Origin: Candidatus Binatia bacterium | GTDB lineage: Bacteria; Desulfobacterota; Binatia; HRBIN30 | Length of the DNA: 17,016 bases | Direction: 5' to 3' | Assembly: GCA_041497995.1 (NCBI GenBank) | Contig: JBGQHM010000111.1 | Coordinates: 1-17,016, forward strand | In this document: positions 7,355 through 10,069 of the stretch, piece by piece | Numbering within the stretch: position 1 is the stretch's first letter | Layout of the letters: each line of letters begins with the position of its first letter | The notes under the pieces: model-generated | Told to the model about the DNA's origin: nothing | Seen by the model: the letters and a program-made list of their open reading frames with translations, nothing else | The model's database searches: none | Translations under genes and position numbers: made by a program

Positions 7355-8131
7355 ATGGTGACAAGCGATCTGGACGTCGGCTCTCAGTACCTGCACGCCA
7401 CAAAGGGCGGCGGTGTGTTGCGTGTCGTCATCGACCGACCCAAGCGCCGCAACGCGCTGACCATCGAGATGTACCACGGCCTGAAGAAGGCCACGGTGCT
7501 CGCCGAGCGCGACCCCGATGTGGATGTGCTCGTCGTCACGAGCACCGGCGAGTACTTTTGCGTCGGCGGCGAGATGGGCGGGCAACATGAAGGTGGGCAG
7601 GCGCTCGACCGCGAGACCGATCGCTTCGACCTGCTGCCGTTCGTCGAGCTCGAGCGCTGCCCGAAGATCGTCGTGATGGCGATCAACGGCATGTGTCAGG
7701 GCGGCGGGCTCAACATGACTTTGATGAGCGACATCTCCGTGGTTTCCGACCGCGCGACCTTCCGCGCGCCCGAGTTGCTGCGCGGCGTCGCCGACTGCTT
7801 TCTCGGTGCGCGGCTGGCCAGCCGTATCGGCATCGCGCGCGCCAAGTATCTGCTGTTCACGGCGCAGTACATCAGCGCGCAAGAGGCGCTGGCCATAGGC
7901 CTCATCTCACGCGTCGTCCCGCACGATCAACTCGAGACCGCGCTTGCTGAAACCATCGGCTGGATCCGCCAGACCGGCCCGCACGCGCGCACCGCGCTAA
8001 AGCGTGACATGAACCGCCAGCTACCGGTGATCGACTACCCGATGTTCGCCGAGTCGCTCGCGTCTGAAGAAGTACGCGAAGGCTTCACCGCCTTCGTCGA
8101 GAAGCGCCCACCGCGCTGGGCGAGCAAGTAG
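7355..8131 (+). CDS. Enoyl-CoA hydratase/isomerase (crotonase superfamily)
   Basis: A 258-aa ORF. 'RVVIDRPKRRNALT', 'YFCVGGEMGG' and 'GMCQGGGLNMTLMSD' are the crotonase oxyanion-hole signatures. ATG at 7355, TAG at 8129-8131. Confidence 0.8.
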   Translation: MVTSDLDVGSQYLHATKGGGVLRVVIDRPKRRNALTIEMYHGLKKATVLAERDPDVDVLVVTSTGEYFCVGGEMGGQHEGGQALDRETDRFDLLPFVELERCPKIVVMAINGMCQGGGLNMTLMSDISVVSDRATFRAPELLRGVADCFLGARLASRIGIARAKYLLFTAQYISAQEALAIGLISRVVPHDQLETALAETIGWIRQTGPHARTALKRDMNRQLPVIDYPMFAESLASEEVREGFTAFVEKRPPRWASK

Positions 8132-8609
8132 CGCCGCAGAAGCGCCGGTAGGTCCCCCTCCTTACCAAGGAGGGGGCTAGGGGGGAGGTTGCTCTGCGCG
8201 CCCGCAACACGTCCTCGATCCGCGCCAGCACACCCGCAAGATTCTCGAAGACATCCACGTTCGCAAACCGAAGCACCTCAATCCCGAAGCTCTTCAAGTA
8301 CGCCGTTCGCCGCTGGTCGTACGCGACGGCGTCCGCGGTGAAATGCGAATCGCCGTCGATCTCGATCGCCAACTTCGATTGTACTGCGTAGAAGTCGAGG
8401 ACGTAAGCGTTGACGCCGTACTGTCTGTGGAACTTGGTGCCGCGTTGTGCGCCTTTGAGTTGCTGCAACAGCCGGCGCTCGGCTTCCGGCGCGTTGTTGC
8501 GCAGTGTTTGGCGTTTGGTGCGTTCGGTGTGTTTGTTGAAGTGGAGTGTCAGAGCAACCTCCCCCTGCCCCCTCCTTGGTAAGGAGGGGGACCTGTGCCG
8601 CGCCCACAC
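8085..8609 (-). CDS. DUF559 domain protein (Vsr-like endonuclease fold; E. coli YcjD-like) with uncertain true ends, since the ORF reads through both flanking inverted repeats
   Basis: The core 'NKHTERTKR...LRNNAPEAERRLLQQLKG...GTKFHRQYGVNAYVLDFYAVQSKLAIEIDGDSHF...QRRTAYLKSFGIEVLRFANVDVFENLAGVLARIEDVL' matches the short (~120 aa) DUF559 family. The only available start is GTG at 8609, just outside the right repeat. No internal Met exists. The C-terminal ~40 aa are translated from the left repeat and overlap the crotonase 3' end by 47 nt. Confidence 0.6.
   Translation of the reverse strand: MWARHRSPSLPRRGQGEVALTLHFNKHTERTKRQTLRNNAPEAERRLLQQLKGAQRGTKFHRQYGVNAYVLDFYAVQSKLAIEIDGDSHFTADAVAYDQRRTAYLKSFGIEVLRFANVDVFENLAGVLARIEDVLRARRATSPLAPSLVRRGTYRRFCGATCSPSAVGASRRRR
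8151..8196. repeat. Left terminal inverted repeat containing a perfect hairpin (CCCCCTCCTT-acc-AAGGAGGGGG, 8154-8176) plus 'ctaggggggaggttgctctg'
   Basis: Seen directly. Its reverse complement recurs at 8550-8593 with only two small indels. Confidence 0.8.
8550..8593. repeat. Right terminal inverted repeat: 'cagagcaacctccccctg' plus hairpin CCCCCTCCTT-ggt-AAGGAGGGGG (8568-8590)
   Basis: Reverse complement of the left repeat. Differences are 'c-tagggggg-a' versus 'c-aggggg-a'. Confidence 0.8.
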
Positions 8610-8633
8610 CGGCGCGGCGTCGAGCGTTGCCGG

Positions 8634-9260
8634 TTACTTTCTCACGAAACCGCCGACGCCACGCACGATGAAGCTGTCGCACGTCGCGTCATTCAAGCGC
8701 GTCGCGATGTCGGTGGAGGAATTGGTCCCCAGACAGTTGCCCGCTCCAGCTGACTCGAGCAGCGCGACGCCGAGGACGGCGAACGGACTGCCTGAGGGAA
8801 ACGTGAGGCTGGCGAACACCGGGCCGAGATCCACTTTCACCTTGCCCTTGCCGCCCTTCAGCACGACCTTGACGTAGACATTCGTGACGTCGTCGCAGAT
8901 CGGTGGTGCTGCGGTGTCGACCGGGCAAGTGCTGACGGCGATTTTGAGGATGGGGTTGTTGGAATCGCTTTCTGTGGGCCCCGTCGTCATGAGGGCGCCG
9001 GCTCCGTCGGTCACTCCCTGGATCGTGCCAGTCACCTTGAGCGTGTCCGGAATCGTCACCTTCGATTTCGGAGACATCTTCGCCAGCGCGCATTCCGAAT
9101 TGTCAAACCCGCAGCTGAGACCCACGTTCAAGCAGAAGCCGGGACCGACGAAACAATCGGGCGGAGCGGGGATGATGTTCAGCTGGACCTTTGTCCCGGC
9201 CGCGGCCTGCGTGGCAACCAAGGAAAGCATCAACGCGAGCAAAGAGAATCGTCTGCTCAT
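8634..9260 (-). CDS. Secreted hypothetical protein (Sec signal peptide, 8 Cys)
   Basis: ATG at 9260 on the minus strand, with GGGGAGG about 9 nt upstream. The N-terminus 'MSRRFSLLALMLSLVATQAAAG' is a classic signal peptide. The track ORF start at 9332 is an upstream read-through. The body is G/T/S-rich with paired Cys. Confidence 0.6.
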   Translation of the reverse strand: MSRRFSLLALMLSLVATQAAAGTKVQLNIIPAPPDCFVGPGFCLNVGLSCGFDNSECALAKMSPKSKVTIPDTLKVTGTIQGVTDGAGALMTTGPTESDSNNPILKIAVSTCPVDTAAPPICDDVTNVYVKVVLKGGKGKVKVDLGPVFASLTFPSGSPFAVLGVALLESAGAGNCLGTNSSTDIATRLNDATCDSFIVRGVGGFVRK

Positions 9261-9339
9261 GATCACTACCTCCCCTTCTTGTTTTTTGCGATGGTGCTCC
9301 CAGGCAGGCAAAGTTGTCAAGCGTACCTGCACATCGGTC

Positions 9340-9368
9340 TTGACTTAACGAACGTTTGTTCGTAGCTA
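9340..9368 (+). promoter_or_regulatory. Sigma-70-like promoter (TTGACT-N17-TAGCTA) overlapped by a palindromic TetR-type operator ACGAAC-gttt-GTTCGT (9348-9363)
   Basis: Seen in sequence in the 128-bp divergent intergenic region between the secreted-protein gene and the TetR gene. Confidence 0.5.
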
Positions 9369-9388
9369 CAGCCGGGGTCTCCAATCCA

Positions 9389-10069
9389 GTGGTCACGAGC
9401 GTACGCAAGGCCAAACGCGCGGCAACGCCGACGCCGGCGCTACCGACGCGCGAGGTGATTCTCGACACTGCCGAGCGGCTGTTCGCCATGCATGGGGTGG
9501 ACAGCGTGGCGCTGCGCGATCTGGCGCGCGAGATGAACCTGACGGCACCGAGTTTGTACAACCACTTCCCCAGCAAGCAGGCACTGTACGACGCGGTACT
9601 GGACCGCGGCTTGCGGCCGATCCTCGAAGCGATTGCCGCGGCGTGGCATCCCGGCGCACTGCGCGCCGAACAGATGCGCGCCACGGTCGATACGCTGACG
9701 ACTCACCTCGCCACCCACCCGCATCTCGCCCGCCTGCTGCAGCGCGCGATGCTCGACCAGAGCGAGAGCGTGCAGAAACTCATGAGTCGCTGGCTCACGC
9801 CGCTGTACGTCGAGGGCATCGCTGTGATTCGCGAGACCGCCGGCGACGCCGGCTGGGAGGCAGACGAGGTGCCGCATCTCACCCTCGGATTGTTTGGGAT
9901 GGTCTTCGCGTATTTTACCAACGCCGCTGCGCTGCAATCGTTTGTTGCCGGCAGCGGCGATCCCATGTCACCGCAAGCGCTGGCGATCCAGCGCCGCGTC
10001 ATCGAAAAGGCGATCTACCGCTTGCTCGGGCCGCTGCCGCGCGGCGCCGAACGCAGAAAGAAGGCATGA
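9389..10069 (+). CDS. TetR/AcrR family transcriptional regulator
   Basis: HTH segment 'EVILDTAERLFAMHGVDSVALRDLAREMNLTAPSLYNHFPSKQALY'. The start is uncertain: GTG at 9389 is preferred, because the TTG at 9356 listed by the track lies inside the operator and promoter. Stop is TGA at 10067-10069. Confidence 0.75.
   Translation: MVTSVRKAKRAATPTPALPTREVILDTAERLFAMHGVDSVALRDLAREMNLTAPSLYNHFPSKQALYDAVLDRGLRPILEAIAAAWHPGALRAEQMRATVDTLTTHLATHPHLARLLQRAMLDQSESVQKLMSRWLTPLYVEGIAVIRETAGDAGWEADEVPHLTLGLFGMVFAYFTNAAALQSFVAGSGDPMSPQALAIQRRVIEKAIYRLLGPLPRGAERRKKA

Follow-up and report, generated by a model that had tools for sequence, protein, structure and literature searches.

The 17,016-nt stretch of Candidatus Binatia bacterium DNA on contig JBGQHM010000111.1 (hereafter the window, which is the part of this genome that was scanned) carries, downstream of a crotonase gene, a compact unit in which a gene of the DUF559 nuclease family is bracketed by two arms of 47 nt (8150-8196) and 45 nt (8550-8594). 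The arms are near-perfect inverted repeats of each other and, by their architecture, copies of a dispersed bacterial repeat, the intrastrand triplex motif (TM). The components of the unit are as follows:

8085 to 8609, minus strand: open reading frame (ORF) of 174 amino acids as called mechanically, that is, the core coding sequence (CDS) extended upstream to a GTG without a Shine-Dalgarno sequence and downstream, by frameshift read-through, into the crotonase gene

8177 to 8552, minus strand: core DUF559 CDS as defined by the family (Pfam, homolog alignment, PDB profile matches, AlphaFold/Foldseek)

8150 to 8196, plus strand: left arm, the TM at the 3' end of the gene (inverted-repeat and hairpin analysis, mirror-tail rule, pattern of PMC4666352), made up of an outer AGGT (8150-8153), the pyrimidine arm CCCCCTCCTT (8154-8163), the loop ACC (8164-8166), the purine arm AAGGAGGGGG (8167-8176), the linker CTA (8177-8179, the family stop codon TAG on the minus strand), the G-rich tail GGGGGGAGGTT (8180-8190, mirror image of the purine arm) and an inner extension GCTCTG (8191-8196)

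8550 to 8594, minus strand: right arm, the TM at the 5' end of the gene (inverted-repeat and hairpin analysis), reading on that strand AGGT, CCCCCTCCTT, ACC, AAGGAGGGGG, linker CA, tail GGGGGAGGTT, GCTCTG

The two arms differ by two single-base indels only, in the linker (CTA against CA) and in a G run (six against five). In each, a perfect stem of 10 bp closes a loop of 3 nt (CCCCCTCCTT NNN AAGGAGGGGG, at 8154-8176 and 8568-8590), a pattern with two matches in the window and none in 200 dinucleotide-preserving shuffles, and the folding energy of each hairpin as single-stranded DNA is about -12 to -15 kcal/mol. The near-perfect inverted repeats of about 45 bp with their own perfect 10-bp hairpins that were described in the initial annotation are thus confirmed; the unit had also been placed flush against the crotonase stop codon, and in fact the repeat starts 18 nt past the TAG at 8129-8131. 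A scan of 7900-9500 for intrinsic terminators called neither hairpin, with no T-run 3' of either, the combined terminator and promoter scan likewise left the hairpins uncalled, and an Rfam search of 7900-8900 at E values up to 10 returned chance matches only. No target-site duplication was found at 8150/8594, where the flanks (GCGCCGGT followed by AGGT on the left, ACCT followed by GTGCCGCG on the right) contain no direct repeat, and the Pfam search of the unit's ORF returned no transposase domain.

The ORF at 8085-8609 has the 174 amino acids, GTG start and lack of internal methionine first reported for it, and its assignment to DUF559 holds, with a PF04480 match (E 2.4e-24, 85.7 bits against a cutoff of 20.6) over residues 31-135 that places the domain wholly between the arms. 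Homologs of the window protein are mostly about 124 amino acids long, beginning MTLHFN and ending TSP immediately before the stop. The position of the family ATG is occupied by CTG in the window (8552-8550), as it is in the ortholog of a relative (locus L001), and the right-arm tail holds a Shine-Dalgarno-like GGAGG 5 nt ahead of this CTG. The family stop TAG (8179-8177) is out of frame in the window, one extra G/C being present in the six-base run at 8180-8185; the L001 ortholog has five G in the same run and stops after the usual TSP. It is because of this one extra base that the ORF reads through into the repeat and the crotonase gene, so the 47-nt overlap with crotonase, although present in the ORF, is an artefact of a 1-nt frameshift and not a family feature. 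The ORF also does read through both repeats as originally noted, but its termini are encoded by repeat sequence because the ATG was lost and the stop was frameshifted. ORFs that read through such repeats are extension artefacts, for example those with the termini 'PSLPRRGQGE' and 'TSPLAPSLVRRG', and what the family alignment does support is a conserved T(S/T)P at the C-terminus, whose codons are supplied by the complement of the downstream tail.

The DUF559 proteins, E. coli YcjD among them, make up a very large family to which no function has been assigned. The Pfam matches of the window ORF are DUF559, MTES_1575 and DUF2726 only, and no match to Vsr (PF03852) was returned for it. A profile built from 27 homologs matched, among PDB entries, 3HRL (a Neisseria 'endonuclease-like protein') with an E value of 1.5e-27 and the catalytic domain of the homing endonuclease I-Bth0305I (3R3P) with an E value of 0.003, and the AlphaFold model (predicted local distance difference test score, pLDDT, 84.6) gave the same two structures as top Foldseek matches, with TM-scores of 0.90 and 0.78. 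The model shares a restriction-endonuclease-like alpha/beta fold with the solved DUF559/Vsr-like members. The columns that are invariant in the homolog alignment (D53, E64, D66, D68 and H70, forming D..ExDGDxH) are all present in the window sequence and would constitute an intact catalytic motif, a putative role taken from the family, and two residues with a conservation of 90% or more in the family are substituted in this copy (W29L and R42H). On the strength of fold and motif, the family of the window protein is a hydrolytic PD-(D/E)XK nuclease, predicted to be able to cut DNA.

The nature of the arms emerges from comparison with 80 loci of relatives of the window protein (40-53% identity, one genome per species) sampled from Cyanobacteria, Nitrospinota, Nitrospirota, Planctomycetota, Bacteroidota, Patescibacteria, Chloroflexota, Desulfuromonadales, several Gammaproteobacteria and others. 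Across phyla the flanks are built to a common plan, consisting of a C/T-rich arm, a short loop, a complementary purine arm, a linker of about 3 nt and a G-rich tail, in which the tail is neither a copy nor the complement of the purine arm and is instead its mirror image; examples are GGGGAGGG followed by GGG(T/A)GGGG, GGGGGAGG followed by GGAGGGGG and, in the window, AAGGAGGGGG followed by GGGGGAGGTT after CA or CTA. Over 93 distinct units, the identity of the tail to the mirrored purine arm is 93.5%, against 83% to a direct copy of the arm and 82.4 +/- 0.9% (maximum 85%) when tails are permuted among units (500 permutations), and the mirror is the better description in 60 units and the worse in 9. 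The linker is 3 nt long in 70 of 86 units, and a purine-arm A stands opposite a tail T in 125 cases and a tail A in 57. Read from these sequences, the pairing of tail and arm is that expected under the rules of a purine-motif intramolecular triplex (G·G:C and A/T·A:T triads). A G-quadruplex formed by the tail was ranked below a triplex, as the A/T interruptions are mirrored in every subtype (the window has G-tracts of 2-5 and 5-2), which a quadruplex does not need, and such tracts cannot yield three tetrads; the tail as an alternative Watson-Crick partner of the pyrimidine arm was excluded, the tail being a mirror and not a complement.

A repeat of this architecture has been described under the names BoxC (E. 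coli, 1990s), PIT elements (Hoyne et al. 2000) and TM or TMECO (Holder et al. 2015, PMC4666352). The published E. coli pattern is CCCTCNCCC N3-6 GGGNGAGGG N3 GGGNGAGGG, with 23 copies in K-12 and 3610 in 262 proteobacterial genomes, and TMs are abundant in enterobacteria and cyanobacteria, and inverted pairs are frequent (PMC4666352). The same study places the formation of a triplex in vitro with the E. coli variant only, reports that purine-motif triplexes do not form in RNA, that TM loci are more variable and recombination-prone, that no gene class is associated with TMs and that PIT elements have neither promoter nor terminator activity, and the words 'endonuclease' and 'DUF' are absent from it (PMC4666352). 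Both window arms have stems (10 bp) of at least 8 nt, a loop (3 nt) within the range of 3-6 nt and a mirrored third segment after a short linker, and by this architecture they are BoxC/PIT/TM intrastrand triplex motifs, triplex formation itself being predicted. The hairpins are consequently not the undescribed, element-specific termini for which they were first taken, and belong by design to a published repeat family (PMC4666352). They share with it the pyrimidine arm, the loop of 3-6 nt, the purine arm, the linker of about 3 nt, the mirrored purine third strand, the G/C-rich composition, the frequent arrangement as inverted pairs and the tie to locus variability, and would probably share its dispersed, intergenic occurrence as well. 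They differ in sequence (CCCCCTCCTT / GGGGGAGGTT with a 10-nt stem in the window, CCCTCNCCC with a 9-nt stem in E. coli) and in company, as the published repeats have no partner gene assigned whereas here the motifs recurrently bracket a nuclease gene.

The association of gene and repeat was counted from the gene by scoring the best inverted repeat between the 150 nt upstream and the 150 nt downstream, with 458 shifted positions in the same loci as controls. Among 77 homologous genes that could be scored, drawn from about ten phyla, 61% exceed the 99th percentile of the controls (medians 31 for genes and 17 for controls), and the flanking-repeat architecture thus recurs across phyla. C-rich hairpins number 317 in 1.13 Mb of sequence, and 156 of them fall within 150 nt of the gene, a zone comprising 5% of the bases (18.3-fold enrichment, binomial p 8e-113); the background in shuffled sequence is about 9 hairpins per 0.56 Mb. 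Of 82 loci, 72 have one or more of these hairpins beside the gene and 48 have two or more. On the upstream side, 39 of 51 nearest units have the tail facing the gene, as do 45 of 53 on the downstream side, and 27 of the 49 loci with both sides occupied have the inward/inward arrangement seen in the window. Spacing is also regular: the purine arm precedes the family start position by a median of 40 nt, and the downstream hairpin follows residue 112 at a median of 39 nt. A rule that the linker always coincides with the stop codon, as it does for the family stop in the window, was rejected as not general, the two coinciding in 5 of 45 downstream units.

Two kinds of rearranged motif were seen in these loci. 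In two loci (L016 and L028, Nitrospinales OZ252246.1), about 100-300 nt upstream of DUF559, the TM hairpin is split by an insert of 110-230 nt that has 13-14 nt of hairpin sequence (CTCCCTATGAAGG[A/G]G) duplicated on its two sides, and the insert looks like a small element nested inside the hairpin. Another locus (L040, 10527-11319) contains an array with a period of about 198 nt in which two motif-like hairpins alternate.

Counted from the motif, the picture is reversed. A metagenome scan with the TM subtype of the window found the same motif type, which also occurs as extra copies in related loci, on at least 120 contigs, and among the matches listed, comprising 90 motif copies on 80 contigs, a DUF559 gene adjoins 4 of the 90 copies and 86 have none. 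The initial annotation had allowed that the palindromes might be simple shared terminators occurring without DUF559: most copies among the matches listed are indeed gene-less, whereas the terminator scan was negative. The remaining motifs among these matches are solitary or paired, the commonest arrangement of a pair being tails-inward, with a spacer of 13-29 nt in 12 of 14 inward pairs. The topology of such a gene-less doublet is that of the gene-bearing unit with a short spacer in place of the CDS, and in Thiothrix (L022) the doublet spacer matches both gene-proximal ends of the occupied copy. Equivalence of doublet site and occupied site is suggested by these features. Doublets mostly combine two different TM subtypes, and the window arms are of one subtype. 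In a separate contig (L114, 2272-2391), a tandem TM array with a 43-nt period extends up to the contig end.

The history of the window copy can be followed against its neighbours, which are:

7355 to 8131, plus strand: crotonase (enoyl-CoA hydratase, ECH) gene (Pfam ECH_1, E 9e-48), the conserved left neighbour and synteny anchor

8634 to 9332, minus strand: ORF of 232 amino acids without a Pfam match, taken in the initial annotation for a secreted protein, neighbour of the DUF559 unit

9339 to 9368, plus strand: TetR-operator-like palindrome CTTGACTTAACGAACGTTTGTTCGTAGCTA, conserved, the right-hand end of the variable intergenic region

Crotonase orthologs are 88-93% identical and their synteny is conserved. 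Five relatives' contigs (L082-L086, crotonase 90-93% identical) keep the gene order AdhE-like / STAS / crotonase / TetR / dehydratase and lack the DUF559 unit at the ECH-TetR site, where about 90-110 nt separate the crotonase stop from the operator-like palindrome, in contrast to the 1.2 kb of the window, which is made up of the DUF559 unit and the 232-amino-acid gene. L001 has the same unit with its arms beside crotonase and a different far flank. These empty and occupied sites indicate that the unit was acquired by insertion into an intergenic region, itself variable, that lies downstream of the crotonase gene. Alignment to the five empty sites gave no insertion point, the intergenic DNA being too diverged. 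The 232-amino-acid ORF is lineage-specific and, like the DUF559 unit, is missing from the ECH-TetR region of L082-L086; it is listed here as a neighbour, its membership in the unit not being shown. Yet another relative (L087) carries different extra genes at this position, and the crotonase-TetR intergenic site is a variable hotspot. The palindrome takes the form CTTGACTTAACGAACGTT(A/T)GTTCGTAGCTA in the window and in L082-L086, just upstream of the TetR gene, and is probably the operator of the TetR/CecR-like regulator downstream of it. After the crotonase stop of L085 and L086 (alignment columns about 85-125), the sequence CTTCCCCCCTGGCAGAGGACCTG / CTTCCCCCCTGGCAGAGGACCTGCAG has the look of a solo hairpin that has decayed, and CTTCCCCCCTGGCAGAGGACCTGCAG ends in GGACCTG, as does the outer end of the right arm of the window; this hairpin-like sequence may be the remnant of a former motif at the empty site, a resemblance too weak to support a claim.

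Near-identical units occur at unrelated loci both within and between other genomes. A Nitrospinales chromosome carries two copies that are 98% identical over 492 bp, lie 1.6 Mb apart and have unrelated flanks, another genome has a copy 95% identical to this unit in a different context, and two Desulfuromonadales metagenome-assembled genomes share a 594-bp unit at 95% identity, again with unrelated flanks. Phage were rejected as the vector, with 1 relative of the subfamily in 2.9 million viral contigs. At the orthologous loci of Aliivibrio sifiae and A. fischeri (L017 and L043), the flanks are 91-92% identical and a segment of about 900 nt with the DUF559 gene and motifs is only 73% identical over 134 nt, a pattern that suggests allele replacement at a fixed site. 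Compared with L001, the upstream arm of the window is identical at 45 of 45 positions, the CDS is 87% identical and the ratio of non-synonymous to synonymous substitution rates (dN/dS) of the CDS is 0.575. With the ATG changed to CTG, the stop frameshifted and the constraint relaxed, the window copy seems to be in decay, with its arms preserved.

In E. coli K-12 the DUF559 gene is ycjD, which has an intact TMECO 170 nt downstream and whose stop codon (C-terminus ...SPSP) is overlain by a degenerate TM hairpin. In the ycjD-fabI interval of K-12 (L090, 16190-16420), the stop-codon hairpin is followed by a partial duplicate, about 70 nt long, of the ycjD 3' end, ending GGGTTAGGGG, and then by the intact TMECO. 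Among 5426 complete E. coli genomes, 3378 carry the gene, in single copy or two at most, TM places range from 1 to 27 per genome, and plasmids account for 5 of 3381 ycjD places and 34 of 76770 TM places. In an evenly spaced sample of 60 genomes, the 37 with ycjD have 11-24 TM places (median 17) and the 23 without it have 1-15 (median 3), a difference with a Mann-Whitney p of 9e-10 in a statistic that ignores phylogeny; UTI89 and Nissle have 2 TM places. These numbers are suggestive of a repeat population that depends on ycjD. The gap between fabI and sapF holds ycjD in K-12 (L090, 16408-16761), and in UTI89, which is without ycjD, it holds the eefRABCD efflux operon (L212, 4446-11938).

The reading that best fits these data, to which we assign a probability of about 0.55, is that the unit at 8150-8594 is a DUF559 nuclease gene between two tails-inward inverted TMs and one case of a widespread gene-repeat partnership resembling that of RAYT genes with REP/REPIN repeats. 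The anatomy of the unit, the family membership of its gene and arms, the statistical association of the two, the presence/absence polymorphism and the dispersed near-identical copies are direct observations; an action of the nuclease on TMs, and its manner, are what we infer from them. In the mechanism proposed, the Vsr-like nuclease would recognise the folded or duplex TM and nick or cut it, nicking being most plausible when the TM folds in single-stranded or supercoiled DNA, and host repair, recombination or replication would then copy, move, maintain or rearrange TMs together with the TM-bounded gene. Nicking followed by host copying would account for the co-mobility of gene and arms, for doublets of the same topology, for arms that are more conserved than the CDS and for the published instability of TM loci. 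The data are compatible both with mobilisation or maintenance of TMs in trans, as by RAYTs, and with homing of the gene into TM doublets. A more specific proposal is put forward tentatively, at less than even odds: this DUF559 subfamily, YcjD included, would comprise the cognate enzymes of BoxC/PIT/TM repeats, nicking the structure formed by hairpin and mirrored strand and so driving repeat spread, maintenance and turnover, gene mobility and TM-locus instability.

The REP/REPIN-RAYT systems, reportedly set out by Nunvar in 2010 and by Bertels and Rainey in 2011, are the closest parallel. Both involve a dispersed, short, structured repeat that also forms inverted doublets with a short spacer, both have one enzyme gene that is typically enclosed by the repeat in inverted copies, and in E. 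coli the enzyme gene is single-copy and chromosomal and repeat number tracks its presence. By analogy, a TM repeat that is numerous and mostly gene-less, together with a DUF559 gene that is regularly bracketed by it, is a relationship of the REP/REPIN-RAYT type. The likeness is one of working only, as membership fails on the enzyme: Pfam and Foldseek show a PD-(D/E)XK, Vsr-like hydrolase and no IS200/IS605-like HUH Y1 transposase, so the chemistry of mobilisation cannot be the same, and TMs lack the GTAG/CGTC tag and have a triplex-type mirrored tail. IS200/IS605 and other hairpin-ended single-strand transposons likewise have subterminal hairpins that bound a small gene and no long terminal inverted repeat serving as a transposase binding site, but they use TnpA (HUH) and their two end hairpins differ and lie on one strand, whereas the window unit has symmetric inverted copies of a genome-wide repeat and encodes a hydrolase. 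The usual marks of an insertion sequence (IS), a transposase and a target-site duplication, are both missing from the window unit.

Two further systems are related through the nuclease. VSR, DUF559 and DUF2726 form one superfamily clade (PMC3424549), and Vsr recognises a distorted feature of DNA and nicks it; the window ORF differs in matching DUF559 with no PF03852 match, and its two immediate neighbours, the genes checked, are not cytosine methyltransferases. The phage enzyme I-Bth0305I (3R3P, EDxHD/Vsr-like) shares the catalytic fold at the TM-score and profile E value given above and has a selfish distribution of the presence/absence type, but it is intron-encoded and has an added DNA-binding region, whereas the window DUF559 gene is free-standing, chromosomal and repeat-bracketed, with about 21% sequence identity to it. 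As to flanking repeats, none are known to us for Vsr genes.

The initial annotation took the unit for a compact selfish or mobile cassette rather than an ordinary housekeeping gene. That it is a discrete, bounded unit of gene plus repeats, and not an ordinary housekeeping gene, stands; that it is an autonomous, IS-like cassette, with the DUF559 protein as transposase and the 45-nt hairpin repeats as its own terminal inverted repeats, is unlikely. Such a cassette would be bounded and have inverted ends as this unit does, and it would agree with the empty sites in relatives, with the 98%-identical copies at two loci of one chromosome whose homology stops near the hairpins, and with a contig end lying no more than 500 nt away in about 16 of 81 loci, as is found for repeats. 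The 'ends', however, belong to a dispersed and independently described repeat family (PMC4666352) most of whose copies, 86 of 90 among the matches listed, have no adjacent gene, no target-site duplication accompanies the unit at 8150/8594, ycjD is single-copy at a fixed locus in E. coli, and viral contigs and E. coli plasmids are almost devoid of the gene, as are the plasmids of TMs. PD-(D/E)XK hydrolysis, moreover, proceeds without a covalent intermediate or strand transfer, as is established enzymology. A free-standing homing endonuclease, which would cut gene-less head-to-head TM doublets and have its gene copied in by recombinational repair through TM-arm homology, is a minor possibility, although it keeps somewhat more credence. 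The closest characterised structural relative is a homing endonuclease, gene-less doublets among the matches listed are also tails-inward with 13-29 nt in place of the CDS, the Thiothrix doublet spacer corresponds to both gene-proximal ends of the occupied copy, the contrast in Aliivibrio between flanks (91%) and DUF559 segment (73%) looks like allele replacement, and the window site is polymorphic for presence of the unit. Homology arms of about 35-45 bp are nevertheless short for RecA-dependent repair, K-12 keeps five unoccupied doublets beside its single ycjD (PMC4666352), the mixed subtypes of most doublets contrast with the single subtype of the window arms, and the same data fit doublets as deletion derivatives. 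No orthologous pair of occupied site and doublet site was found among the loci compared, and the ECH-TetR regions that are empty in relatives are too diverged to place the insertion point.

A passive association, in which TMs gather by DUF559 genes independently of the protein, through insertion at intergenic hairpins or terminators or through hitch-hiking, and in which the gene is an unrelated repair or defence nuclease, is improbable. It would accommodate the many TMs that are not near DUF559 (86 of 90 among the matches listed), the homologs without a significant flanking repeat, the variable and recombination-prone nature of TM loci (PMC4666352) and the gain at the window site of an unrelated 232-amino-acid gene; it is opposed by the 18-fold local enrichment, by the 48 of 82 loci with at least two hairpins beside the gene and both sides occupied, by the orientation and spacing conserved over about ten phyla, by C-terminal codons that come from the tail and by the TM number that follows ycjD presence within E. 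coli. Cis-regulation at the level of mRNA has still less to recommend it and is very improbable. The arms would here pair, or terminate or stabilise the transcript, hiding the GGAGG ribosome-binding site and so setting the expression of a toxic nuclease, and to this extent the GGAGG supplied by the upstream tail 5 nt before the start position, the perfect complement supplied by the downstream arm and the stability of the hairpins (about -12 to -15 kcal/mol) all agree with it. The absence of a T-run after either hairpin, the terminator scan that called neither and the lack of an Rfam family match do not, and the pairing of Shine-Dalgarno and anti-Shine-Dalgarno sequences fails in the Nitrospinales, whose tails point outward. 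The same motif is also abundant without the gene, the mirror-repeat rule has no Watson-Crick rationale, and PIT elements lack promoter and terminator activity just as RNA does not form purine-motif triplexes (PMC4666352). The IS-like, passive and mRNA-regulatory explanations are accordingly all rated lower than the gene-repeat partnership.

Several points weigh against that partnership as the explanation of the unit. We know of no biochemical link between any DUF559 protein and TM DNA, a hydrolytic nuclease has no obvious way to paste DNA, and no way for a PD-(D/E)XK enzyme of this kind to join it is known to us. About 39% of the homologous genes have no significant flanking repeat, the geometry is not universal, as a minority of loci, those of the Nitrospinales, have outward tails, and the 17-kb window contains the two arms only, with no further TM. 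The window copy may be a pseudogene, in which case nothing would be working here now. The correlation of TM number with ycjD in E. coli is phylogenetically confounded and reflects a few phylogroup-level events, and within it O157 strains without ycjD keep 12 TMs and one ycjD-less genome has 15. Holder et al. did not detect a stable triplex in vivo and found no link of TMs to mobile elements (PMC4666352). A link between the DUF559 family and triplex repeats was not found reported in the open-access full-text literature, so an earlier report is possible.

The nuclease family and the repeat are each known separately, and their link appears to be the new part. The origin, dispersal and function of BoxC/PIT/TM repeats are an old puzzle and DUF559 has had no function assigned; the link gives each a testable role, offers a candidate mechanism for TM-associated genome instability and poses a question that can be tested directly in E. 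coli K-12. If true, it would constitute a second, independent symbiosis of repeat and enzyme of the RAYT-REPIN kind, one that pairs a PD-(D/E)XK hydrolase with a non-B DNA structure and spans at least ten bacterial phyla, and would mean that evolution arrived more than once, and by different chemistry, at the lifestyle of a 'dispersed repeat plus domesticated enzyme'.

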